A stretch of 64,000 nt of DNA, taken from the sequence record PP358550. One strand, written 5' to 3'. Positions within the stretch are counted from its first letter, which is position 1. Every line of letters begins with the position of its first letter. Positions 2,608 to 62,982 of the stretch are shown piece by piece. The notes beneath the pieces are model-generated. The model made no database searches and was not told where the DNA came from. It saw only the letters and a program-made list of their open reading frames with translations. A program made the position numbers and the translations under genes. Origin of the DNA: Escherichia phage FL04.

Positions 2608-3132
2608 GTGAATATGTCAGAATTTAATTCTTGTGCTGGTCTGGTTAACGAAAAAGATATTAACGCGGCTATCGCCGCATATCATCACGCTATTGCAGAA
2701 GGTAAAGATCCGTTTCAGGTGATGCTAGAAATGCAAACTGGTTTGCAGGTTGCATTATCAGAAAAATTTGATTGGGTCCCAAATCCAACTAAGCTAGAGA
2801 CTTGCGGTGAAATGCTGGATTGGATGCAGCGGATGGATGACGCTATCGCAGACGAAACACGAGAGCTTTACACATCGCTGGGTGGAATGTCCAATGGTAA
2901 AGATGCAAGTGCAATCTGGAAAATGTGGAAAAAGAACCACGGGGAAGCGCGAGCGCGTAAATTCTCTGAACTGTCACCGGAAGATCAGCTTGAAGTGAAA
3001 TTTGAATTTGTGGATGCGATCCACTTCATTCTGTCAAAGATGATCCCGCTGGGTATTGACGCTCAAGAACTCTTTATTCTGTACTATCTGAAAAATGCTG
3101 AAAACTTCGCCCGTCAAGAACGCGGCTACTAA
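2608..3132 (+). CDS. hypothetical protein, possibly all-alpha NTP-pyrophosphatase-like (candidate dCTPase gp56 analogue)
   Basis: 174 aa; acidic ExxxE / ExxD patterns (ETCGEMLDWMQRMDDAIADETRE, EDQLEVKFEFVD); T4 gp56 is recalled as a similar length, but that match is from memory and unverified. Confidence 0.35.
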   Translation: MNMSEFNSCAGLVNEKDINAAIAAYHHAIAEGKDPFQVMLEMQTGLQVALSEKFDWVPNPTKLETCGEMLDWMQRMDDAIADETRELYTSLGGMSNGKDASAIWKMWKKNHGEARARKFSELSPEDQLEVKFEFVDAIHFILSKMIPLGIDAQELFILYYLKNAENFARQERGY

Positions 3133-3139
3133 AAATTAG

Positions 3140-3168
3140 TTGACACTACTCTATAATGGTTTTATTAT
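3140..3168 (+). promoter_or_regulatory. sigma70-type early promoter (TTGACA-17-TATTAT)
   Basis: -35 TTGACA 3140-3145, -10 TATTAT 3163-3168; immediately followed by hairpin plus T-run. Confidence 0.5.
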
Positions 3169-3198
3169 GCCTCCCGTCGAAAGATTGGAGGCTTTTTT
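3169..3198 (+). terminator. hairpin plus T-run (terminator/attenuator) whose 3-prime arm contains the GGAGG Shine-Dalgarno of the next gene
   Basis: GCCTCC...GGAGGC stem followed by TTTTTTATT, 4 nt before ATG 3202. Confidence 0.55.
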
Positions 3199-3201
3199 AT
3201 T

Positions 3202-3705
3202 ATGCAATTTACACCAGAAGAACTTAACATCATTGATGAATTGATGAACTCTAAAGAAAATATCGATATGTCGATCCTTAATGGATTGATCGAAAAGACT
3301 GAACGGTTAGTGCATCATGAAGCCTTGTATCGCGGTGTGAGCAAAAGAGAAGGCCGTAAGCTGGATACCTTAATTGTAGGTGATTCTTTCGTTGTAGATC
3401 GTCCTATGAGCTTTACGCCACTGCAATCAACAGCAGAGGACTTTGCAACCGATGTTTATGCAACAGGAAAGATTATTGCAATAAAACCTACCAAGCCTTG
3501 CATGAATTATTACGAACATGCTATTGACCGAGTGGTGTCTAAAGAGTATGACAATCCGACTACTCGACTGTCTTTGTATGCTATGTTGGCAGATGAGCGC
3601 GAGTGCATATACAAGACAGGGACGACCATGATCCTTGATGAGATCGAGGAAGTTTACGCGTGTAATGGCGATCTGATAGAGATTTACAAATTTTCTTTAA
3701 TTTAA
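3202..3705 (+). CDS. putative ADP-ribosyltransferase (ModA/ModB-like)
   Basis: 167 aa; R (LYRGVS), S-x-T (MSFTPLQST) and E-x-E (ADERECI) motifs in the order expected for R-S-E type ARTs. Confidence 0.4.
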   Translation: MQFTPEELNIIDELMNSKENIDMSILNGLIEKTERLVHHEALYRGVSKREGRKLDTLIVGDSFVVDRPMSFTPLQSTAEDFATDVYATGKIIAIKPTKPCMNYYEHAIDRVVSKEYDNPTTRLSLYAMLADERECIYKTGTTMILDEIEEVYACNGDLIEIYKFSLI

Positions 3706-3708
3706 GTG

Positions 3709-3738
3709 TTGACAGCACAAACCAGATAGACAATAATA
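3709..3738 (+). promoter_or_regulatory. sigma70-type early promoter
   Basis: TTGACA 3709-3714, 17-nt spacer, AATAAT-like -10 at 3732-3738. Confidence 0.55.
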
Positions 3739-3766: not shown

Positions 3767-4522
3767 ATGAAACTGTTTGCTTTTAAATCTAACGAAGAAT
3801 TGGCGCTGGTTGTTTTCCGGCTGAACTCTATCATGGCTGGCGCTTCACGTCGCAACAAAGACTTCTCTATGAGCTTAGTCACTGTTCGTAACATTTACCG
3901 TCAGACTCATTGTGTCTATTCAGGTGAGGCTTTCGGTGAAGGTGATGACGGACTCTCCTTAGAGCGCATTGATTGCAATCTGGGATATGTTGATGGCAAT
4001 GTAATTCCGGTTAAACTGAAATACAATTCTTTCCGTGGCAATCACACTATCGAATCTCTTAAAGAGATCCAAGAACTAGGAACTAACGGTAAACTTTCTG
4101 ATGATGAAATTGCCCTACGTGCGAAGTACATCGAGTGGATCGAACTTAACGAGAATCGCATCAAAAATCAGGAAATGGCAATCGAAGAAAAGAAATTAGC
4201 AATCGAGCGCCACAAAAAGCACAACGAACCGGAGAAAGCAGAGGCAGCCGAGCGAGCGATTAAAAATACTCTCTTCCGTATGGAAGAACGTTATCAGAAA
4301 ATTGCAGATCTCAAGCAAGCCCTTAGCGAAATCAACAAGAAAGAAGAAAAACTTAAGGCTATTGCAAACAATACCGAAATCGTGCTAAAATATACCAGCG
4401 TTTTGATTGAATCTCTTTCTAAGTATGAGAACTTAACGCCAGCACAAAAAGAACGCGTGAAATACGGGCTTCCGATTGATGCGTCGTGGATTGAATTGAT
4501 GAAAGCGAAGGTAGGTTTATAA
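3767..4522 (+). CDS. hypothetical protein with C-terminal coiled coil
   Basis: 251 aa; RBS AAGGAGA; N-terminal region has a degenerate HNH-like stretch (SLERIDCNLGYVDGNV) without His; C-terminal half is K/E-rich. Confidence 0.6.
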   Translation: MKLFAFKSNEELALVVFRLNSIMAGASRRNKDFSMSLVTVRNIYRQTHCVYSGEAFGEGDDGLSLERIDCNLGYVDGNVIPVKLKYNSFRGNHTIESLKEIQELGTNGKLSDDEIALRAKYIEWIELNENRIKNQEMAIEEKKLAIERHKKHNEPEKAEAAERAIKNTLFRMEERYQKIADLKQALSEINKKEEKLKAIANNTEIVLKYTSVLIESLSKYENLTPAQKERVKYGLPIDASWIELMKAKVGL

Positions 4523-4836
4523 TGCATGTATTTGCTGTATGTTATCGTGATAAAGACGGATTCTTTCAATACTCAGTGGACGCGAAAGGTCGCGTCCTAA
4601 CTTGCGAAACACATGATGCTGCGTTAGCGTCAATGTGTGATCAGATAGATTATTGTGAGAGTCTATTGGCGGGTGAACCGAAATACAAGGTTGTACCTAA
4701 ACGAAAATTTGGCATAATCCGGTCTTCTGAAATTGTTCGGGATGGTATAGAATATAAAATTCCTGAATATGAAAAAGAACGGGTACGGCGAGAACTCAAT
4801 ACTATCTGTGTTCGCAAGGTGAGGATTTTAGGATAA
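4522..4836 (+). CDS. hypothetical protein (104 aa)
   Basis: Start overlaps upstream stop (TAATG); stop overlaps dda start. Confidence 0.55.
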   Translation: MHVFAVCYRDKDGFFQYSVDAKGRVLTCETHDAALASMCDQIDYCESLLAGEPKYKVVPKRKFGIIRSSEIVRDGIEYKIPEYEKERVRRELNTICVRKVRILG

Positions 4837-6227
4837 TGAGCAGAGTATTAACTTTCGATATGTTAACAGACGGGCAAAAACATGCTTTTGATGTTCTAAT
4901 GAAACGCATTGAACAAAAGAAGCATACAACTGTCCGGGGTGCGGCGGGTACTGGTAAAACCGCAATGATGAAATTCATTGTTCAGGAAATGGTCCGCCGT
5001 GGTGTAACTGGTGTGGTTTTGGCAACGCCTACCCACCAGGCTAAAAAAGTTTTGAGTAAAGCGGTAGGTCGTCAAGCATTTACTTTACATGCACTACTGC
5101 GACTAAACCCGACCAACTATGAAGATACTCAAGTATTTGAGCAAAAAGATACTCCTAAGCTAGATGATGTTCAGATCATCATTGTTGATGAAGCGAGTAT
5201 GGTCGATAAGAAACTATTTGATATTCTCATGAAGAGTATCAACGGTCGAATTGTTATTATTGCCGTGGGTGATCTGTACCAGTTACGACCAGTTGATCCG
5301 AGCGGTGCAACGTCGATCTCTCCTTTCTTCACCGATGAAAGGTTTCAGAATGTAGAACTTACAGAGATTAAACGATCTAATGCGCCAATAATTGATGTGG
5401 CGACCGCTGTCCGTAATGGTAAATGGGTATTCGAAAAGCAGTGCGGTAACGAGGGTGTATTCCATAGCTCAACTCTGCCGGAGTTTATGAAGCATTATTT
5501 CGAAACCGTTAAAACGCCGGAAGACCTTCTAGAAAACCGTATTCTGGCCTACACTAACAAGAGCGTCGAAAAACTCAATGAAATTGTGCGTAAGCGCGTT
5601 TATAACACCGATGAACCAGTGATTGTAGATGAAATTCTGGTTACTCAGGAACCATTGATCGAATATCTGCGAGATGAACGCGGGAAGAAGATTCCCAATG
5701 TTATTTTTAACAATGGTGAGATGATCCGAGTTAAAGAGGTCATCCCGCGTGAATTTACATTACGTTGCACGGGTGTAGATCCGCAACCAGTTTTAGGATA
5801 TACTCTGAAAGTGGAAAGCGTCGATGATGACGAAGACAAAGAAATCCTAAATCAGAAAGTCGGTTTAGATGCAGTCGGAATAACTACAGATAAACCAGAT
5901 TTAGTAGAAATCAACATTCTGACAGAACAACGTCAGAAGAACATTTTCTCTATCTATCTGAATACGGTCGCCGGACAATATCGCGAAATGAAGAAAGAGA
6001 ATCCGAATTTTAAACCGGATTGGGATTCTTTCTGGACGATGAAGCGTATGTTCTTGAATGTAAAAGCATTACCAGCTTGCACTATTCATAAGTCACAAGG
6101 AATCAGCGTAGACCGCGTGTTCCTGTATACCCCTTGCATGTGTACAGATAATGTTGACTTTGAATTGGCAATGCAGTTATTATATGTGGGTGTTACCCGT
6201 GCACGGTATCGTGTAGACTATATTTGA
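4836..6227 (+). CDS. dda: DNA helicase Dda (SF1B)
   Basis: 463 aa; Walker A GAAGTGKT, IIVDEASMVD, VGDLYQLRPV, RSNAPIIDVAT, LYVGVTRARY; collinear with T4 Dda. Confidence 0.93.
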   Translation: MSRVLTFDMLTDGQKHAFDVLMKRIEQKKHTTVRGAAGTGKTAMMKFIVQEMVRRGVTGVVLATPTHQAKKVLSKAVGRQAFTLHALLRLNPTNYEDTQVFEQKDTPKLDDVQIIIVDEASMVDKKLFDILMKSINGRIVIIAVGDLYQLRPVDPSGATSISPFFTDERFQNVELTEIKRSNAPIIDVATAVRNGKWVFEKQCGNEGVFHSSTLPEFMKHYFETVKTPEDLLENRILAYTNKSVEKLNEIVRKRVYNTDEPVIVDEILVTQEPLIEYLRDERGKKIPNVIFNNGEMIRVKEVIPREFTLRCTGVDPQPVLGYTLKVESVDDDEDKEILNQKVGLDAVGITTDKPDLVEINILTEQRQKNIFSIYLNTVAGQYREMKKENPNFKPDWDSFWTMKRMFLNVKALPACTIHKSQGISVDRVFLYTPCMCTDNVDFELAMQLLYVGVTRARYRVDYI

Positions 6228-6238
6228 GGAATATTATT

Positions 6239-6406
6239 ATGATTATGCGAAGTATCCCAGAATTTGACGAAGTGAAAGTATCGTATCATGGCGAATGTGT
6301 ATACATGCATTTCAGGTGGGGTAACTACGGATGGGGTATATCTGGAATCAGCGAGGCCGATTGTATTAATTCCATGATAGATCACTTCACTAAGCGGGGT
6401 TACTGA
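6239..6406 (+). CDS. hypothetical small protein (55 aa)
   Basis: ATG 6239 with GAGGA 8 nt upstream; track ORF begins at an upstream TTG. Confidence 0.45.
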   Translation: MIMRSIPEFDEVKVSYHGECVYMHFRWGNYGWGISGISEADCINSMIDHFTKRGY

Positions 6407-6407
6407 T

Positions 6408-6647
6408 ATGATGATTATTGATGAACTTGATAAACTGTTATGTTTAGATGCCATCGTAACATTCCATCGTGATAAAATTCACGCTGATTATGCACAACAT
6501 GTAATGTCTTTTCGACATAAAGTACAGTCGGTACAGGCGATGGAAAGTTTACTGATTAATGTTTGCAATTATCGGTCAACCAAATGCAATCTAGTGTTAG
6601 ATAAAAACGATCTGGAGTTATTCCGGCACATCGCGGAGGATATTTAA
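6408..6647 (+). CDS. hypothetical protein (79 aa)
   Basis: Tightly packed between upstream ORF and dexA. Confidence 0.5.
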   Translation: MMIIDELDKLLCLDAIVTFHRDKIHADYAQHVMSFRHKVQSVQAMESLLINVCNYRSTKCNLVLDKNDLELFRHIAEDI

Positions 6648-6648
6648 A

Positions 6649-7317
6649 ATGCTTCCAGTGGATTTAATGATTGACTTTGAAAGTTTAGGTTATCCGCCTG
6701 ATGGGGCGGTTATCAATATGGCGGCAATCGGATTTAAAGAAGATCCGCACAATCCACCTACATTTAAAGAACTGGTCGACAATTCCTTTCTGGTAAAATT
6801 TGATATTCCTTCCCAGAAAGGTGTAAGGGTGTTTGATCATGGTGTGGTTGAATGGTGGAAGAATACCGCCTCAGAAGGCATGAGAAAGCAATTAATCACA
6901 AATGGTACGGAAGTATCAACTAAAGAAGGTTTAGCGCGTTTTAACGCATTCTGTGAAGCCGTAGGAGTAGATCCGGTTAAATCCGTAATGTGGTCACGCG
7001 GTAATGCGTTTGATATTCCGTTACTAGTTGATATGATCCGCCGTGCACACAATACACGAGAGACGTTCAGCCTTGAACCTGTGCGATTCTGGAATATCCG
7101 AGATGTTCGCACCGCCATTGAGCGTACATTGATGCATCGCGGGATGTGTGAGTGTCCGTTACCAATGGGTACGCTAGATGGTTTTATCGCACATGATGCA
7201 ATTCATGATTGCGCTCGCGATATTCTTATGCTAATCTATGCACAACGTTATGCTATGGGTCTGGAAGACCTACCAGAAAATCCAGATCCAAATTCAGTTA
7301 AGAAACAAAGGGGATAA
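6649..7317 (+). CDS. dexA: exonuclease A (DexA, DnaQ-like 3-prime to 5-prime exonuclease)
   Basis: 222 aa; N-terminal DFESLG exonuclease motif, later HDAIHDC; T4 synteny (dda-dexA). Confidence 0.8.
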   Translation: MLPVDLMIDFESLGYPPDGAVINMAAIGFKEDPHNPPTFKELVDNSFLVKFDIPSQKGVRVFDHGVVEWWKNTASEGMRKQLITNGTEVSTKEGLARFNAFCEAVGVDPVKSVMWSRGNAFDIPLLVDMIRRAHNTRETFSLEPVRFWNIRDVRTAIERTLMHRGMCECPLPMGTLDGFIAHDAIHDCARDILMLIYAQRYAMGLEDLPENPDPNSVKKQRG

Positions 7318-7318
7318 T

Positions 7319-7492
7319 ATGCCATTATACGATTATTCTTGTGAAGAACACGGTCAATTTCAGAAAATCCGCAAAATTTCCGAACGTGAAAAGGCAGAAT
7401 GCCCTGAATGTGGTAAAGAATGCAAACAGGGATTAACTGCCCCGCGCGGTATTAATGGCGGGTACTATGATAAAAATGTGCGCGTGTCATGA
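7319..7492 (+). CDS. FmdB-like zinc-ribbon protein (57 aa)
   Basis: MPLYDYSCEEHGQF...CPECG pattern typical of FmdB-family Zn-ribbons; not in track at this start (track ORF starts further upstream). Confidence 0.5.
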   Translation: MPLYDYSCEEHGQFQKIRKISEREKAECPECGKECKQGLTAPRGINGGYYDKNVRVS

Positions 7493-7595
7493 GTCATATA
7501 CTTGACAATCACTCAATTTTTAATATGATTGTTGCAGCCGTCTTTGTGGCGGTTGCAGTAAGTTATGGTTATGTTATGTATTGGAGAGAGAAAAA

Positions 7596-8324
7596 GTGAA
7601 CATCAAAAAGTTTATTGTTGATGTTCTGGAGGCGAAAAGCGGAAATAGACTAAACTCAAATCTTTTTAAAGAAAATAAAATTCCAGAAATGGAAAAATTG
7701 TATCCTGCGGAATTTCAGATTATAAGGAATGAGTTTAAGTTCTGTAATGGAGGTCTCAGAAATCAACAACCATATAACGAGGCTGTTTATAGATTGCGCC
7801 ACGGAATAACAGGAAGAGTTAAATGTGCAAGATGCCCAAATCCTGTAAATTATCATACATACTCTAGAGGCTATCATAAATTTTGCTGTTCTCGTTGCGC
7901 ATCGTTGGACCAGGCACAAAACATAAAGATTGAACGAGAATGCGCTAAATGTGGTAAACCATTTGTTGCAATAAACGTATCTCAAAAGTATTGTTCTGAT
8001 GAGTGTCGATTGTTCGAGAAGCGAGAGCGAGAACTAGATAGGCCATATCATCATGCCGAAAATGGTATAAAAATATCAAAAAGAGAAGCGTTAGAAATTT
8101 TAGGCAGAGTTGACAATTGCGAGATATGCGGTGTAAAATTCATAAATGAACGATGCGGCGTGAGAAAACGCCAAAAGTGGAAACATCTTGACCATAATCA
8201 TAAGACTGGTAAGATAAGAGGTGTTCTTTGTGGAAAATGTAATGCCGGATTAGGGATGTTCAAAGACGATCCTCAAAGATTATATGCGGCATTGGAATAC
8301 CTGAAACGAACTGACGGAGAATGA
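7596..8324 (+). CDS. Endonuclease VII-domain (HNH-like) nuclease with N-terminal Cys-rich zinc-ribbon repeats; putative homing endonuclease
   Basis: C-terminal HLDHNHKTGKIRGVLCGKCNAGLG matches Endo VII catalytic motif; several CxxC pairs upstream; probable GTG start at 7596 after GGAGAGAG (track starts at TTG 7581). Confidence 0.7.
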   Translation: MNIKKFIVDVLEAKSGNRLNSNLFKENKIPEMEKLYPAEFQIIRNEFKFCNGGLRNQQPYNEAVYRLRHGITGRVKCARCPNPVNYHTYSRGYHKFCCSRCASLDQAQNIKIERECAKCGKPFVAINVSQKYCSDECRLFEKRERELDRPYHHAENGIKISKREALEILGRVDNCEICGVKFINERCGVRKRQKWKHLDHNHKTGKIRGVLCGKCNAGLGMFKDDPQRLYAALEYLKRTDGE

Positions 8325-8330
8325 TATAAT

Positions 8331-10154
8331 ATGTCTGAATTTTTGCTGTTAGATGATCGCGCTCACTGTCTTAAGAGACCTTCAATGTACATCGGGTCAA
8401 CGACTTATGAATCACACAATCGTTTCCTATTTGGAAAATGGACCAAAGTTTCATACGTTCCTGGTCTAGTTAAAATTATTGATGAAATTATCGACAATTC
8501 TGTAGACGAGGCGATCCGCACTAATTTTGAGTACGCTAATGTTATTAGTGTGGATATAAAAGATAACATTGTGTCAGTAACAGATAATGGTCGCGGTATT
8601 CCGCAACATATTGTTACGACGCCAGAAGGGAAACAGATTCCACAACCAGTTGCTGCATGGACACGAGCTAAAGCAGGGTCTAACTTTGATGATACAAATC
8701 GTGTTACTATGGGTATGAATGGGATCGGAAGCGCGCTCACATCATTTTTCTCGTCCTGGTTTACTGGTGTGACGTGTGACGGAGAGAATGAACTGACCGT
8801 TCAATGTACCAATGGTGCAGAAAATATTAGCTGGTCATCTAAGCCGTCAAAACTGAAAGGAACTAAGGTTACGTTCTGCCCCGATTTCGATCATTTTGAA
8901 GGTATGATCATGTCACAAGAAATTTCAGATGTAATTTGTGACCGTATGTATTCCTTAAGTGTAATCTTTCCTAAGATCACGTTTAAGTTTAATGGCAAAA
9001 AGATAACCAGCAAATTCAAGGATTATGCTAAACTATACAATGATGATCCGTTTGTCATTGAAGATAAAAACTTTTCACTTGCCCTAGTTCCTGCGGTTGA
9101 AGGTGAAGGTTTTAAATCAGTATCATTTGCTAATGGTCTGTTTACCAAAAACGGGGGAACACACGTTGATTATGTGACAGATGATCTTTGTGAAGAGATT
9201 GTAAAACGAATCAAGAAAGAATATAAGGTTGATGTTACTAAAGCTGCGGTTAAGTCTGGATTGACCTGTATTCTTATTGTTCGTGAATTGCCAAACCTCC
9301 GTTTTGATTCACAGACAAAAGAACGATTGACTAATCCAACTGGTGATATCAAGCGTCATATTGATCTTGATTTTAAAAAACTGGCTAAAGTCATTGCGAA
9401 GAAAGAAAACATTATCATGCCTATTATTGCTGTAGTCCTGGCACGCAAAGAGGCAGCAGATAAAGCGGCAGCGACTAAGGCAGCAAAGGCAGCGAAACGG
9501 GCTAAGGTGGCAAAACACGTTAAAGCTAACCTTATTGGAACTGACGCAGAAACTACCCTGTTTTTGACGGAAGGTGATTCCGCGATCAACTATCTGATCT
9601 CTGTACGTGATCAAGATTTACATGGCGGTTTCCCGTTGCGAGGCAAAACTCTTACAACGTGGGAACAACCGGAGGCAAAGATCGTTAAGAACGCCGAAAT
9701 TTTTAACATCATGGCGATCACTGGCTTGCAATTTGGTGTTGATGCATTGGAAGTTATGCAATACAAAAATATTGCGATTATGACAGACGCTGATACTGAC
9801 GGGATTGGGTCTATTAAGCCTAGTCTGATCTCTTTCTTTGCACGTTGGCCTGAATTGTTCGAAGATGGACGAATCCGGTTTATCAAAACACCTATTATCA
9901 TTGCGGAACCAAAGAAAGGTGATGATGTTCGATGGTATTATGACCTAGAAGATTTTGAGAACGACCGAGATAATATCAAAGGTTATAGCATTCGATATAT
10001 CAAAGGGTTAGCATCGCTTACAGAATCAGATTATCATCGCGTGATCAACGATCCTGTAATGGAAATCATCACGTTACCGGAAAACTATAAAGAGCTATTC
10101 GATTTGCTCTATAGTGAAGATGCAGATCAGCGCAAAATTTGGATGCAATCATAA
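8331..10154 (+). CDS. 39: DNA topoisomerase II large subunit gp39 (unsplit, GyrB-like ATPase)
   Basis: 607 aa; Bergerat ATPase motifs (IDEIIDNSVDEAIR, DNGRGIP), Toprim region (LTEGDSA, MTDADTDG); length matches a fused gp39+gp60 as in T2-type phages. Confidence 0.93.
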   Translation: MSEFLLLDDRAHCLKRPSMYIGSTTYESHNRFLFGKWTKVSYVPGLVKIIDEIIDNSVDEAIRTNFEYANVISVDIKDNIVSVTDNGRGIPQHIVTTPEGKQIPQPVAAWTRAKAGSNFDDTNRVTMGMNGIGSALTSFFSSWFTGVTCDGENELTVQCTNGAENISWSSKPSKLKGTKVTFCPDFDHFEGMIMSQEISDVICDRMYSLSVIFPKITFKFNGKKITSKFKDYAKLYNDDPFVIEDKNFSLALVPAVEGEGFKSVSFANGLFTKNGGTHVDYVTDDLCEEIVKRIKKEYKVDVTKAAVKSGLTCILIVRELPNLRFDSQTKERLTNPTGDIKRHIDLDFKKLAKVIAKKENIIMPIIAVVLARKEAADKAAATKAAKAAKRAKVAKHVKANLIGTDAETTLFLTEGDSAINYLISVRDQDLHGGFPLRGKTLTTWEQPEAKIVKNAEIFNIMAITGLQFGVDALEVMQYKNIAIMTDADTDGIGSIKPSLISFFARWPELFEDGRIRFIKTPIIIAEPKKGDDVRWYYDLEDFENDRDNIKGYSIRYIKGLASLTESDYHRVINDPVMEIITLPENYKELFDLLYSEDADQRKIWMQS

Positions 10155-24306: not shown

Positions 24307-27105
24307 TTAGAATTTAAAATATTTACTAATTTTGCGAGCAATTTTAGTAAAGAGAGGCGTTTTCAATTCTTTAATTTCTTCACTCATTTCCTGAATAGCC
24401 TTAATTAAAAGAGCATTCACAGCGGAGTTAGAAATTGTCAGAACATCAGATCCATCAACTTCAACTTTAGACACAGCTTCCGGTAATTCTTTTTCAAGAT
24501 CCTGAGCAATAATACCAACTTCGCGTTTAATCACGCTACGATCTTTAATAGACTTAACTTTATCGTAAGTATAAACTTTCAGTCGGCAAACTTTTTCGAC
24601 CGCTCCATATTCTAATTCTTCTTTATTAATCTTGAGACGGGAGTCAGAACGAATATACACATCGCTAAAGCTACCATTTCCTGGTGTATAAAAGAATCCA
24701 TCATGATGGAATTCAAATATAGCTTGTGGGTGTCCAGCATCAGGAGAAGCCTCCGTGGATCCGACGCGAATGATTGCTTGCCCCCACTGTGATGGAATAC
24801 GACGCATACCAAAGTCAACAGCGGTGCTATATCCTTGATTGGTTATAACGCTTCTTGCTTTAAGAATAGGATAATAACTATCTTGACCAACATAACCATG
24901 ATCAACGAATAATGGAGCTTCTACTCGCCATTGGTTGCCCCAATCACCCGGTTGTCTAGCAATCCATCCAGAACCGTTAATGTGTACACGGTCGCGGTTA
25001 ACGTTAACCATTAAGGTATTTTGCGGGTTTAACGCAATCTCACCATTGTTTGTTATATGTACTGCCGCCTGAGTAGCATAGCTATAAAATGCTAGCGAAT
25101 TATCAGCACCACCTTTACCAATATACCAGTTACCATTCCCGTCTACGTCACCGCGAATATGCAAAGCGTTGCTGGCTGTAGTCGATAATACAATAGCATC
25201 ACCCGGACGTTTAATAGTCAATCGACCAGTTGATTCAACTTCACCAAAGAATTTAGTTTTAATTGCACCAGTCGCTAAAGTACGTTCAGTGGAAAAATGA
25301 GCGCCTTTACTATCTTCTAACTGAATAATGTTATCACGAGCGTTATTGCTATCACCCCAATGATTAAACCGGAAATAATCGCGTGATTGCTTACCACCCG
25401 CTTCAAACGTCAGCGTACCTTTACTTAAATTAACATCACCGCTAAAGGTAGCAGCAAGAGAACCGCCTTTTAATACTAAAGCGTTAGCACCGCTAGTGCC
25501 ACCCAAAGTAACATCGCCAGTTTTTAATTGATAGCGGAAAGGTCTATTTGTATTAAAGTTTCCATCTTGATCATTTTCGTCGGTGGAAAGAATATAAAGA
25601 CTTTCACCATCATTACGGAAAATTGTGCCAAATTTACCGCCATACATACGGAATGCATTAGATGAGCGGAATTTAACTTCTGTTTTAAATGTGGTAGTGT
25701 TATTAAGGTTAACAGTAGAGTTAAAATTGGTAGGAGCACCGAAGTTAACAGCACCATTAAAATCTTGTTGAGCTGTCCATGTGTGGCGACCATCTTCAAG
25801 AACAACACGGCGGACTGTGTAAGTTCTATTTCCAGAATTACCGAACACACGAACGACAAAATAACGGTAGTTTGTCTGGGATACAGTACCGCGCCAAACC
25901 TGAACAGTACGCCCTGTGCTAGTGTGTTCACTAGGACCAACGGAAAACATAACCAGGTTTCCGTCAATCGTCCCCCAATCCATATTTGCTGGCATGTTCT
26001 TTATTTTGTTCAAAGGAACGCTAAACATACTACCAGGAACAAAATCAAAGGTTTGCCAATCTAACTCCGCTAATTGAGCTTTAATACCACCCATACCCAA
26101 AGTAATTGGAAGAGAATAAGATGTATATACTTCGTTCCATACACCCCACGCACCACCAGTATATGCACGCTCAAAAATACGATCGCGAGTAGTTGCACCC
26201 GTTCCGGCAGTAGTAAATTTTTGGAAAATAGCACCACCAGAAGCACGCTGTTTAACTTCCAGCAAACCAACAATAACGGCTGGTAAACCTTCACCAGTAG
26301 GACAGTTAATAACGGCATCAGTGCCTAAAATGTTATATAACCCAGGAGTTTTAAAATCATTCAGATCTCCATCATAGAAAGTCGCTGGTGTGCCATGACC
26401 AACCTGCTTCCATTCCTCCCACTTAGGTGCACTAGCATCCCATGCAGCAGCGAGACAACGAGTATAAACCATACCCATGCGGGTAGTATAACGCTGCGTT
26501 CTTGTGTAGAAACCACCTTCAAATATTTCTAAAAATCCTTGTGCGGCTGATCCTTCTTCTGGATAATGGCGATCAAATGATGCGATTGCGCTTGAACTGT
26601 TTCTCCATAAGCCACAATGTTCTAATTCTCCCAAGCTATCAAGGTCAATCGTTTGTGAAAGTGGACGAGTTGACGCTTGAACATTACGCCACACACCCCA
26701 TGGACCATCTACACCATTCCATTTCGCAGACAAAGAACGGATATAAACGTTACCAGACCGAACAGTATAACGCTGAGTGCCAGCAAATTGACCAGCCACA
26801 AATACTTCTAATACACCTACAGCATTCTCTTCTGGGAATTTATTTGCTGGCTGCGCATTTGTTGAAGTTGATTTAGACCAAACGCCAGTAAATTTACCAG
26901 TAGGTCCATAATTATCTAAATTTGCATCAGATGGCAACTCACCGCGAAAGTGTCCCAAAGTAATTACATTATTGCTGTCATCTTTTGTATATAGTTCTCG
27001 ATCCGCTAGGTTAATAGCAAGTTCACCCGGAGTTAGAATATTCGCATCCGGCTTGCGACCTGCCGTACTTGTTCTTTTAAATTGGATTCTCTGTAAATCT
27101 GCCAT
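24307..27105 (-). CDS. 37: long tail fibre distal subunit gp37 with C-terminal intramolecular chaperone (S74-like) domain
   Basis: 932 aa; N-terminus MADLQRIQFKRTSTAGRKPDANILTPGELAINLADRELYTKDD matches gp37; C-terminal SDVYIRS/DSRLKINKEE...AVNALLIKAIQEM resembles autoproteolytic chaperone domain. Confidence 0.88.
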   Translation of the reverse strand: MADLQRIQFKRTSTAGRKPDANILTPGELAINLADRELYTKDDSNNVITLGHFRGELPSDANLDNYGPTGKFTGVWSKSTSTNAQPANKFPEENAVGVLEVFVAGQFAGTQRYTVRSGNVYIRSLSAKWNGVDGPWGVWRNVQASTRPLSQTIDLDSLGELEHCGLWRNSSSAIASFDRHYPEEGSAAQGFLEIFEGGFYTRTQRYTTRMGMVYTRCLAAAWDASAPKWEEWKQVGHGTPATFYDGDLNDFKTPGLYNILGTDAVINCPTGEGLPAVIVGLLEVKQRASGGAIFQKFTTAGTGATTRDRIFERAYTGGAWGVWNEVYTSYSLPITLGMGGIKAQLAELDWQTFDFVPGSMFSVPLNKIKNMPANMDWGTIDGNLVMFSVGPSEHTSTGRTVQVWRGTVSQTNYRYFVVRVFGNSGNRTYTVRRVVLEDGRHTWTAQQDFNGAVNFGAPTNFNSTVNLNNTTTFKTEVKFRSSNAFRMYGGKFGTIFRNDGESLYILSTDENDQDGNFNTNRPFRYQLKTGDVTLGGTSGANALVLKGGSLAATFSGDVNLSKGTLTFEAGGKQSRDYFRFNHWGDSNNARDNIIQLEDSKGAHFSTERTLATGAIKTKFFGEVESTGRLTIKRPGDAIVLSTTASNALHIRGDVDGNGNWYIGKGGADNSLAFYSYATQAAVHITNNGEIALNPQNTLMVNVNRDRVHINGSGWIARQPGDWGNQWRVEAPLFVDHGYVGQDSYYPILKARSVITNQGYSTAVDFGMRRIPSQWGQAIIRVGSTEASPDAGHPQAIFEFHHDGFFYTPGNGSFSDVYIRSDSRLKINKEELEYGAVEKVCRLKVYTYDKVKSIKDRSVIKREVGIIAQDLEKELPEAVSKVEVDGSDVLTISNSAVNALLIKAIQEMSEEIKELKTPLFTKIARKISKYFKF

Positions 27106-60027: not shown

Positions 60028-62079
60028 ATGTTTAACTTAGAAATCGACGATCTAATGATTGAATCTTTCGAGAAATGGCTGTTGACGGAAGAGGAAGAAA
60101 ACTTTGGCAGTATTGCTCCGGTACAGTGCTTAAAGCCTAAGCAGAATCCTAAACAGCTTTTTGCAGTACAGACACGCGATAAAGATGTGATTGTCCGTCT
60201 TTGTAACTTCACCAACAAAACACCTAAAATCATTCGTATGGGTGACAAGACCGCACATGTTGTACTGTGCGAAATGAACAAAAGCGGTCGTATTGTACAG
60301 CTTAAAAATGGTCTAGGCGATAACCCGATTGCAGTTATGTCAAGTGCTTTTGATGTGGTTATGGAAACAGCCCGTAAAGCGCAATTAGACGCTGTTATGT
60401 TCCGTTTTAACGTATCCCGCATGAAAGGTAAGACCGAACTGGTTAAGCGCGTTATAGAGCGTTTGGTGCGTCGTACACCGAAGTTTGAAGTATTCCAGCA
60501 GGAAGTAATGACCAGCAAAAAGATCGCTTTAGTTGTTGTCAAGCGTCGCGGGATGGCGATTGATAAGATTAAAGGGATTAAACTTGATGAATCCTTGTTC
60601 ACTAAAGTAGAAAGTGATTTAGGTGATCGCTGGGTATCTAAGGCTACTGGTGAATCTCTGACTAAAGATGAGGCATATGCGGCTAGTCTTGTGTCAGAAG
60701 AAGAACGAAACGCGGAAGCAGAACAACGAGTAGCGGCTAAATCTCGTTTGACTAAAGAAGAAATGCTGAAAACTCAAGCGACCTATAACAGCGACTATGT
60801 GAATCATCCAGAAAAAATTAATCTTAAACCGGAAGAAGATATCACCGAAGCAGAACCTAAGAAACAGTTTAATACTCTGATTGACCGTCAAGCCTTAGAA
60901 CGTTCAACCGCTCGTTCTCTGAATGACTGGACAAGTGATATTATCACTCGCTATGGTTTCATGCGTACTATTTTTGAAAGCGAAGCCGATGCAAAATACG
61001 CAGTAAGCGAACTGGTAAAAGTTCAGGATCAATATGATCCATTGTCTGCGGAAGTTATCGCAGCATCAATCAAACGCTTAAAAGAAATCATGAGCGAGGA
61101 AGTATTCGAAAACAAGATCACCGCCCTGGCAATGGATCGAGTAGACCAGTCTATGCCAGCAGATGTAAAAGCTGAAATGCTGCGTAGTCACATCACCCAG
61201 ATTAAAACCGATGCCCTACGTAATGTTGCTTCCGGTATGTTTGAAGCAATTGCTAGCAACATGGGTGAAATGATGGCAGATATTGATCTTGATCTGCCGG
61301 GCGCGGAAGGTTTTGTGTTGAGCGAATATGCCGATGCAGCATACATCAATATGAACAACTTCCTAACCGACCGTAAGCTGGAAGAGTTTGAAGGCATCGC
61401 AGATCCAGAAGAATTGGTCAAGATGTGCGATGCATTGGATAATGCCTTCTCCAACTATGGCGTTAAACTTGATCCGGGTACTATTCTGTATCGTGGTATG
61501 GACTTCCGGTCGCAAATGTGGGAAACTGCACGTAAGCAAAAAGCGTTTTACTTTAAAAACTATGTGAGCACTTCCCTTGCACCTAACATTTTTGGCGGCT
61601 GGAATGCAAACGTGGCTAGTGCCGTTGCTGGTGTTGATTCTATGGCTGGCTCTCGCGGTGAAGGTGGCGCTAATGTTGCTTTCTCCATTGCTGGCGCGGA
61701 AAACATCCCTGTATTGCCAGTAGGTAACAAAGCATTTGCTTACAAAGAATGCGAGATTTTACTTCCTCGCGGTGTTGTGTTATCCTTTGATACGGTAACT
61801 CGTGCTACGGCATCGACGGATTCACAAGAAACTTATTACATTGAGGCACATATTATGAACAAAAATGAACTGGCAGCATTACAAGAATCTGGCGAGATGA
61901 TCGCGGACGGTGATGCATTCATCCGTGAAGGTGTTATTAAACCTGCTTCTGACCTGTCTTTCTCCAGCTTCATTAGCGAAGCTAAAACCGAACGTAAGAA
62001 AGCAGATAAGGCAACTCTACGTCAGCTTATCGCTGATCTGGTATCTGTAGACGCAATGCCAGATAAATTTAAAATGTAA
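60028..62079 (+). CDS. alt: ADP-ribosyltransferase Alt
   Basis: 683 aa (T4 Alt 682 aa); C-terminal catalytic region with R (LYRGM), STS (YVSTSL) and ExE (KECEILLPRG) motifs. Confidence 0.8.
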   Translation: MFNLEIDDLMIESFEKWLLTEEEENFGSIAPVQCLKPKQNPKQLFAVQTRDKDVIVRLCNFTNKTPKIIRMGDKTAHVVLCEMNKSGRIVQLKNGLGDNPIAVMSSAFDVVMETARKAQLDAVMFRFNVSRMKGKTELVKRVIERLVRRTPKFEVFQQEVMTSKKIALVVVKRRGMAIDKIKGIKLDESLFTKVESDLGDRWVSKATGESLTKDEAYAASLVSEEERNAEAEQRVAAKSRLTKEEMLKTQATYNSDYVNHPEKINLKPEEDITEAEPKKQFNTLIDRQALERSTARSLNDWTSDIITRYGFMRTIFESEADAKYAVSELVKVQDQYDPLSAEVIAASIKRLKEIMSEEVFENKITALAMDRVDQSMPADVKAEMLRSHITQIKTDALRNVASGMFEAIASNMGEMMADIDLDLPGAEGFVLSEYADAAYINMNNFLTDRKLEEFEGIADPEELVKMCDALDNAFSNYGVKLDPGTILYRGMDFRSQMWETARKQKAFYFKNYVSTSLAPNIFGGWNANVASAVAGVDSMAGSRGEGGANVAFSIAGAENIPVLPVGNKAFAYKECEILLPRGVVLSFDTVTRATASTDSQETYYIEAHIMNKNELAALQESGEMIADGDAFIREGVIKPASDLSFSSFISEAKTERKKADKATLRQLIADLVSVDAMPDKFKM

Positions 62080-62157: not shown

Positions 62158-62982
62158 ATGTTCAAGAAATTACAGGATTTTCGTCTTTCAGAAGAATCAC
62201 GCGAATCAATGATGGAACGTATGGATAATTACATCGAAACATATGACATTGAGGGGATTAATGGTTACATGATCACTGAGATGATCAGCGATCAGATTAA
62301 CTTTGATGATTATGTGAAGGTTATCCGCTTCCTTGAGCGCGAGACACAAGATTATGGATTTGTCAAGAAAATCATTAATGTGATGTATGAAGTACACTCC
62401 GAAGACTTTGGAGATAATGTATTCAAACATTACAAACATAACAACATAACCCCAGCAGAATATAATGCAATCTGTGATTATGTGTCTGAACAATACGAAT
62501 GGGTAAATGGTGCTCTCTTAGGGGAAGAAGACATGACCGATGAGATATCAGAGATTGTTGATTTGATGGATTGTGTCATGGATAAAACCGAAAAGTTAAA
62601 CGGTACTCTTTATCGAGGTCAACATCTTGACATTCAGACAATAGAGCGTATCATTGAAGATAAGGAGTTTACCTTTAAAAACTTTGTATCTACCAGCATG
62701 ACACCGATCATCTTTGGAGGATGGCTATCAAACAGCACTAGCCTTTATTGTGAGAATCGATATGAATCAATGACCGGAAAGATGCAACATTCTTGTAATG
62801 TATCATGGGTAATTGACGTAAAAGATCATAAAGGTTTTGTTGTTGGGTCAATTGCATGGAACCCTTGCGAATGTGAAGTAATTTTACCGCGAGGGACTTG
62901 CGTCAAGGTAAACGACGTAGTAGAATCTTTCGGCGATGAGAATCGTAGACAATTTACAATTTTCGGTGAGGTGACTAAATGA
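62158..62982 (+). CDS. Alt-like ADP-ribosyltransferase paralog (274 aa)
   Basis: LYRGQ, FVSTSMTPIIFGGW, CECEVILPRGT mirror the Alt catalytic motifs. Confidence 0.65.
   Translation: MFKKLQDFRLSEESRESMMERMDNYIETYDIEGINGYMITEMISDQINFDDYVKVIRFLERETQDYGFVKKIINVMYEVHSEDFGDNVFKHYKHNNITPAEYNAICDYVSEQYEWVNGALLGEEDMTDEISEIVDLMDCVMDKTEKLNGTLYRGQHLDIQTIERIIEDKEFTFKNFVSTSMTPIIFGGWLSNSTSLYCENRYESMTGKMQHSCNVSWVIDVKDHKGFVVGSIAWNPCECEVILPRGTCVKVNDVVESFGDENRRQFTIFGEVTK

Follow-up and report, generated by a model that had tools for sequence, protein, structure and literature searches.

Positions 3202..3705 (+) very probably encode the sole Mod-family mono-ADP-ribosyltransferase (ART) of an RB49-like (Krischvirus) T4-type phage. 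The window, i.e., the whole stretch of DNA that was analysed (64,000 nt of Escherichia phage FL04, sequence record PP358550), is an RB49-like (Krischvirus) T4-type phage genome, and the 4.8 kb of DNA around mod are 99% identical to RB49-like phages of this genus (e.g., kvi and FL37). A sequence-only reading had placed a 167-aa ORF between the primase gene and dda, in the genome region equivalent to that of the mod genes in T4, and had proposed it as a candidate Mod-like ADP-ribosyltransferase and the third ART of the window. The ORF is present where it had been placed, with an ATG start and 167 codons followed by a stop codon that is included in the coordinates; its Mod-like identity is borne out by a match to PHROG 832, homology to T4 ModA and ModB, residue conservation and fold; its position next to srd is conserved; and the two other ARTs of the window are an Alt homologue and an Alt-like paralogue, described below. 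As for its standing as a candidate, the ART identity holds but the gene is not new, having already been annotated in RB49 and in Krischvirus records. The stop-to-stop reading frame of mod opens at 3157 and offers no in-frame start further upstream, so that no earlier start is possible and the short N-terminus of the protein is real. The genes surrounding mod are the following:

1571-2599: gp61 primase, upstream of mod and of gene 56
2608-3132: gp56 dCTPase (gene 56), directly upstream of mod
3202-3705 (+): mod, identified as an ORF and by PHROG 832, identity with RB49, BLASTP with the T4 proteins and the ART fold
3767-4522 (+): srd, downstream neighbour of mod
4522-4836: dda.1-like ORF, between srd and dda
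4836-6227: dda, after the dda.1-like ORF
6224-6406 and 6408-6647: two small ORFs, between dda and dexA
6649-7317: dexA

The gene order of this early block (61, 56, mod, srd, dda.1-like ORF, dda) corresponds to that of T4, which reads dda, dda.1, srd, modA, modB ... 56 ... 61 and is the same in RB69, both mod genes included. In the window, srd directly adjoins mod, and the latter thus occupies the position of modA in T4 and RB69. RB49-type genomes possess one Mod gene, and T4 and RB69 possess two.

A Mod-type ADP-ribosylase gene is already known at this locus and has been so labelled in RB49 since 2003, as well as in relatives of this phage. The RB49 protein (AAQ15305, from AY343333; 'ModB ADP-ribosylase') is 167 aa long, shares 98.8% protein identity with the window Mod and has the same neighbours, gp56 and srd; it and its Krischvirus orthologues represent the same gene, with no difference of substance beyond their names. 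Products at least 95% identical to the window Mod occur in 58 phage records, and 58 Krischvirus records contain it as an intact gene. Across those records the labels range from ADP-ribosylase and RNA polymerase ADP-ribosylase to modA, modB, 'ModA or ModB' and hypothetical protein, a diversity of names which reflects unresolved ModA/ModB orthology. A 'Mod family' has been recognised inside the RSE clade of viral ARTs (PMC9503650), and our survey of the literature on the RB49-type Mod protein found no biochemical work.

Membership in this family is supported by direct similarity to the T4 enzymes as well as by profile matches. The protein matches PHROG 832, 'RNA polymerase ADP-ribosylase', with an E-value of 1.4e-20, and BLASTP aligns it with T4 ModB (E 5e-11; 33% identity over residues 2-113) and with T4 ModA (E 4e-7; 25% identity over 140 residues). 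The Pfam family PF26816 is precomputed on all homologues, identical and near relatives alike; our own scans of Mod against Pfam-A and NCBIfam, in a set from which PF26816 is absent, gave no significant match, the only hit (DUF5507, E 0.13) being noise. When Pfam was approached through relatives, 59 family members yielded matches to DRAT (10 members), ADPrib_exo_Tox (3) and ART (3). A word-index homologue search returned only three relatives, and a second search was seeded with the T4 and RB69 Mod sequences; among 1.84 billion representative proteins searched with a profile, 229 Mod relatives were retrieved at E ≤ 0.001. The same profile also matches very large proteins (1,400-7,000 aa; among them P0040, P0041, P0046, P0051 and P0056), several times each and mostly over the half running from the R to the S motif; they could be polyvalent or toxin-type proteins in which ART modules are repeated or incomplete.

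In ModA and ModB, the active site is marked by the motif R-S-EXE (PMC10468400). Its counterparts in the window Mod could be located by alignment with T4 ModA (NP_049635, 200 aa) and T4 ModB (NP_049636, 207 aa):

3331..3333 (+): encodes R44, the presumed NAD-binding arginine of the Y-R-G motif (strand beta-1); equivalent to ModA R72 and ModB R73
3409..3417 (+): encodes S70-F71-T72, counterpart of the 'STS' motif; equivalent to ModA S96-A-S and ModB S99-F-T
3595..3603 (+): encodes E132-R133-E134, the presumed catalytic E-x-E motif closing the ARTT region; equivalent to ModA E163-Q-E165 and ModB E171-Q-E173

Residues R44, G45, S70, E132 and E134 show no variation when the protein is aligned with ModA and ModB of T4 and RB69. 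The motif residues are likewise conserved among 97 small sequences of 140-260 aa, comprising 94 retrieved relatives together with the window Mod, T4 ModA and T4 ModB: R44 is kept in 96 of the 97, G45 in all of them and S70 in 94, position 72 is S or T in 96, and E132 and E134 are each kept in 95, both exceptions being alignment gaps. The catalytic residues are also retained across the clade of short Mod proteins described below, down to 38% identity. In ARTs, an E-x-E rather than a Q-x-E motif indicates an arginine acceptor. The functional weight of these positions comes from ModB: PMC10468400 gives the R73A variant as inactive, and bioRxiv 10.1101/2025.07.11.664405 describes E173 as essential and R73 as binding NAD, the primary mutagenesis paper being Tiemann et al. 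2004 (PMC523198), whose conclusions are cited here as relayed by the papers quoting it.

The strings in which the sequence-only reading had recognised these motifs fared unequally: LYRGVS (from residue 42), MSFT (from residue 69) and DERE (from residue 131) are present, but Q75-S76-T77, the end of the quoted MSFTPLQST, is not conserved. Similarly, the R/SxT/ExE arrangement that it had offered as evidence does align with the T4 ModA and ModB residues, but the loose pattern R...S-x-[ST]...E-x-E is no better than chance, appearing in 14% of 5000 shuffles of the Mod protein and in 8 of the 81 long six-frame ORFs of the window. The motif observation therefore carries weight only in combination with homology. 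A stricter pattern, [YFW]-R-G...S-x-[ST]...E-x-E, appears in 0.02% of the shuffles and in four window ORFs, three of them ARTs. The strict pattern is also carried by a 932-aa ORF at 24307-27105 (-), where it is probably a chance match in a long protein.

An AlphaFold2 model of Mod, built on a 19-sequence alignment, was obtained with high confidence (mean pLDDT 92.1, pTM 0.85) and shows the compact ART fold of the R-S-E clade, a split beta-sandwich with an NAD cleft. Y43-R44-G45 is located within strand 42-45 and S70-F71-T72 within strand 69-72, and E132 and E134 lie where helix 119-132 meets strand 135-137. Fold comparison gave figures of 12.1 for VIP2, 12.0 for CPILE-a, 11.8 each for Certhrax, Lmo0066 and Vis, 11.3 for C3stau2, 10.8 for HopU1, 10.3 for SpvB and 9.0 for ART2.2, in agreement with the Foldseek result; between 128 and 136 residues of the model superpose on active toxins. 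Among predicted viral structures, Mod-family proteins of other T4-like phages match the model at TM 0.85-0.93, and the BFVD entry A0A7D7JJA7, a Krischvirus orthologue labelled 'ADP-ribosylase', matches it at TM 0.99. Searches of the PDB with the single Mod sequence returned chance matches only (Lys-tRNA ligase, E 0.76), and profile searches gave marginal (E 0.003-0.02) but consistent ART matches, in which the ExE, YRG and S-x-S of the family pair with those of XopAI, Vis and Lmo0066. Specifically, these marginal profile-to-PDB alignments bring the E-x-E over the ExE of all three proteins, the YRG over that of Vis and Lmo0066, and S70-F71-T72 over the TSTS of the Vis toxin. A firm answer required the comparison of folds.

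The window Mod differs from other ARTs in several respects. Its identity with R-S-E toxins of the C3, VIP2, iota, Certhrax and Vis types is 8-21%, the catalytic domains of these toxins are roughly 200 aa long as compared to 167 aa for the whole of Mod, and, unlike them, Mod has no domain for secretion or translocation and works within the cell that produces it. Within the window, the Alt homologue (60028-62079, +) is a full-length protein of 683 aa, matching PHROG 802 (E 2e-179) and Pfam ADPrib_exo_Tox; the adjacent gene (62158-62982, +) encodes the Alt-like paralogue of 274 aa, which consists of the catalytic domain only (PHROG 15144; ADPrib_exo_Tox, E 4e-16) and corresponds to the RB49 alt paralogue noted by Nolan et al. 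2006. Both belong to the T4 Alt family and are also R-S-E ARTs of the same phage, but of a family different from Mod: they hardly register in a search with the Mod profile (E 0.002 and 2). T4 Alt, furthermore, enters the cell from the phage head along with the injected DNA, which we do not claim for Mod.

The window Mod also differs from the two T4 Mod enzymes. It resembles T4 ModB in lying in the dda-to-56 block of early genes and in its S-F-T motif, but the two proteins are only ~27% identical, and ModB has a ~10-residue insertion before the ExE region which the window Mod is without. With T4 ModA it shares a gene position adjoining srd, but identity is 25%, and ModA has S-A-S and L-W-R-G in place of S-F-T and L-Y-R-G. 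The first ~30 residues of ModA and ModB of T4 and RB69 are absent from the window Mod, for which alignment starts at about ModB residue 31, and the protein is 33-40 residues shorter than the two T4 enzymes; it therefore departs from the full-length Mod architecture of ~200 aa with a ~30-residue N-terminal segment. The missing N-terminus marks a short variant and is compatible with membership in the Mod family. Other short forms (161-176 aa, 38-48% identical) are present in metagenomes, and their best matches among sequenced phages are Krischvirus genes.

Identity between lineages of the Mod family is as low as 24-35%. In a neighbour-joining tree computed on the columns of the query only (100 bootstraps), the short forms, T4 ModA and T4 ModB each formed a clade with 100% support, and the short clade was sister to T4 ModA in 25 of 100 bootstraps and to T4 ModB in 3 of 100. 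Assignment of the protein to ModA or ModB by this tree was dropped, neither grouping being supported. Judged from its sequence, the window Mod is a separate short lineage, orthologous to neither T4 ModA nor T4 ModB. As it belongs to neither clade, target specificity is not transferable from either enzyme, and the 'ModB' of RB49 is a name taken from the best BLAST hit. The isoelectric point, considered as a marker of RNA use, was uninformative, all compared Mod proteins being acidic.

By analogy with ART biochemistry, Mod would bind NAD+ soon after infection, R44 and S70 holding the dinucleotide, and E134 would serve as the catalytic glutamate that stabilises the oxocarbenium transition state. 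E132, the first E of the ExE, would be expected from general knowledge of ARTs to direct ADP-ribose onto arginine side chains. If T4 biology is a guide, the protein would be produced early and its acceptors would be host proteins of transcription and/or translation, which would help to turn the cell over to phage gene expression. T4 ModA modifies Arg265 of the RNA polymerase alpha subunit (PMC2988021), and T4 ModB ADP-ribosylates S1, EF-Tu and trigger factor, and RNAylates with NAD-capped RNA (PMC10468400, PMC3014915). For the window Mod, the candidate targets would be Arg265 of RNA polymerase alpha, on which ModA acts, or the ModB targets S1, EF-Tu, trigger factor and L2.

Which of these the enzyme might use can be argued in several ways. 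One tentative possibility is that this third, N-terminally shortened and sole Mod lineage combines the roles of ModA and ModB, RNAylation possibly included, or else has a host target of its own, differing from those of T4. Alternatively, the role might be that of ModB, directed at the translation apparatus (S1, EF-Tu, trigger factor, L2), perhaps with RNAylation from NAD-capped RNA. T4 ModB is indeed the best pairwise match (5e-11 versus 4e-7 for ModA), and the S-F-T motif is identical in the two proteins. Moreover, middle-promoter motifs were found in only two of five T4-like genomes, RB49 not being among them (Nolan et al. 2006), so that an early-to-middle switch of the ModA type seems less needed. 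This role is nevertheless doubtful, given that the short clade groups with ModB in so few bootstraps (3 of 100) and that the C-terminal half of Mod aligns better with ModA; RNAylation competence, for its part, has no known sequence marker (PMC10468400) by which it could be tested.

A role like that of ModA, in which Arg265 of both RNA polymerase alpha subunits would be ADP-ribosylated and UP-element-dependent transcription lowered, is conceivable to a similar, limited degree. The adjoining srd gene places mod where modA stands in T4 and RB69, the 25 bootstraps out of 100 in which the short clade is sister to ModA are the higher of the two values, and RB49 has early promoters with UP-like A-rich tracts and a diverged Alt. 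However, a bootstrap value of 25% provides no support, pairwise similarity is weaker to ModA than to ModB, and the S-A-S and L-W-R-G of ModA differ from the S-F-T and L-Y-R-G found here.

It is unlikely that the protein is an active ART with a substrate of another class, such as a host defence protein (an anti-defence function, as in AcrIF11), a nucleic acid or a small molecule. The distinctness of the lineage (100% bootstrap), the fast evolution of the family, with its 24-35% identity between lineages, and the existence of phage ARTs with anti-CRISPR roles (PMC12421852) would suit such a function; against it, both the E-x-E motif and the closest structural neighbours belong to protein-arginine ARTs, and no defence-related or immunity gene is adjacent to mod. 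We regard as very improbable that Mod is a catalytically dead relic acting only by binding or not at all, as the loss of ~30 N-terminal residues of the T4 enzymes might suggest, since all catalytic residues are retained and conserved in the short clade, the predicted fold is complete and of high confidence, 128-136 of its residues superposing on active toxins, and the gene is intact in the 58 Krischvirus records. That the R/SxT/ExE motif is coincidental and the protein not an ART at all, as the frequency of the loose pattern in shuffles and long ORFs could suggest, is ruled out by homology, residue conservation and fold.

With the Mod-family ART as the very probable identity of the product, the annotation itself adds nothing new, and the value of the gene is modest and comparative. 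T4 ModB was the first enzyme for which the joining of RNA chains to proteins was demonstrated, an activity that ModA does not possess (PMC10468400). A minimal, 167-aa sole Mod that is apparently orthologous to neither T4 enzyme would be a convenient comparison for mapping what determines target choice and acceptance of NAD-RNA, and it would be a small scaffold for RNA-protein conjugation tools. The mildly interesting remainder is that the protein represents a distinct, minimal and single-copy Mod lineage.

The DNA flanking mod contains several putative expression signals:

3140..3168 (+): promoter-like site TTGACA-17 nt-TATTAT, sigma-70/T4-early-type, 11/12 consensus matches
3169-3192 (+): hairpin GCCUCC...GGAGGC, directly after the first -10; RNA fold -15.6 kcal/mol, z = -2.27 versus shuffles
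3187..3191 (+): Shine-Dalgarno sequence GGAGG, 10 nt before the mod ATG and inside the 3' arm of the hairpin
3193-3198 (+): U6 run, directly after the hairpin
3709..3737 (+): promoter-like site TTGACA-17 nt-AATAAT, for srd, the 3' limit of the mod unit; 11/12 consensus matches

The -10 hexamer TATTAT ends at 3168, which places the upstream promoter-like site 34 nt ahead of the mod ATG. Both promoter-like sites are consensus matches only, and the region holds no more such sites than shuffling leads one to expect. From its sequence, the hairpin with its U6 run would be terminator-like for read-through from gene 56, and the arrangement suggests that translation of mod might depend on the promoter that made the transcript. 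Plausibly, transcripts from mod's own promoter would start within the 5' arm of the hairpin and leave the ribosome site free, and transcripts reading through from gene 56 would either be terminated or have this site masked. Promoter-dependent translation of this kind is exemplified by T4 gene e (PMC3014915).

Two further observations concern the genes downstream of mod. The homologue of the Srd 'anti-sigma factor' (3767-4522, +) matches PHROG 1400 with an E-value of 1e-72 and has no Pfam match; its N-terminal part shows weaker matches to PHROGs of HNH and other endonucleases (E 1e-11 and 3e-10). Further along, a Cys-rich ORF of 247 aa (7581-8324, +) carries an Endonuclease VII/HNH domain (Pfam PF02945, E 5.6e-16) and lies between a zinc-ribbon gp39.2-like ORF (7316-7492) and the topoisomerase gene 39 (8331-10154). 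Because the gap between dexA and gene 39 is only ~275 nt in RB49, and because coverage of the 7581-8324 stretch reaches at least 80% in only 12 of the 58 matching Krischvirus records, this ORF looks like a variable insertion of the homing-endonuclease type.
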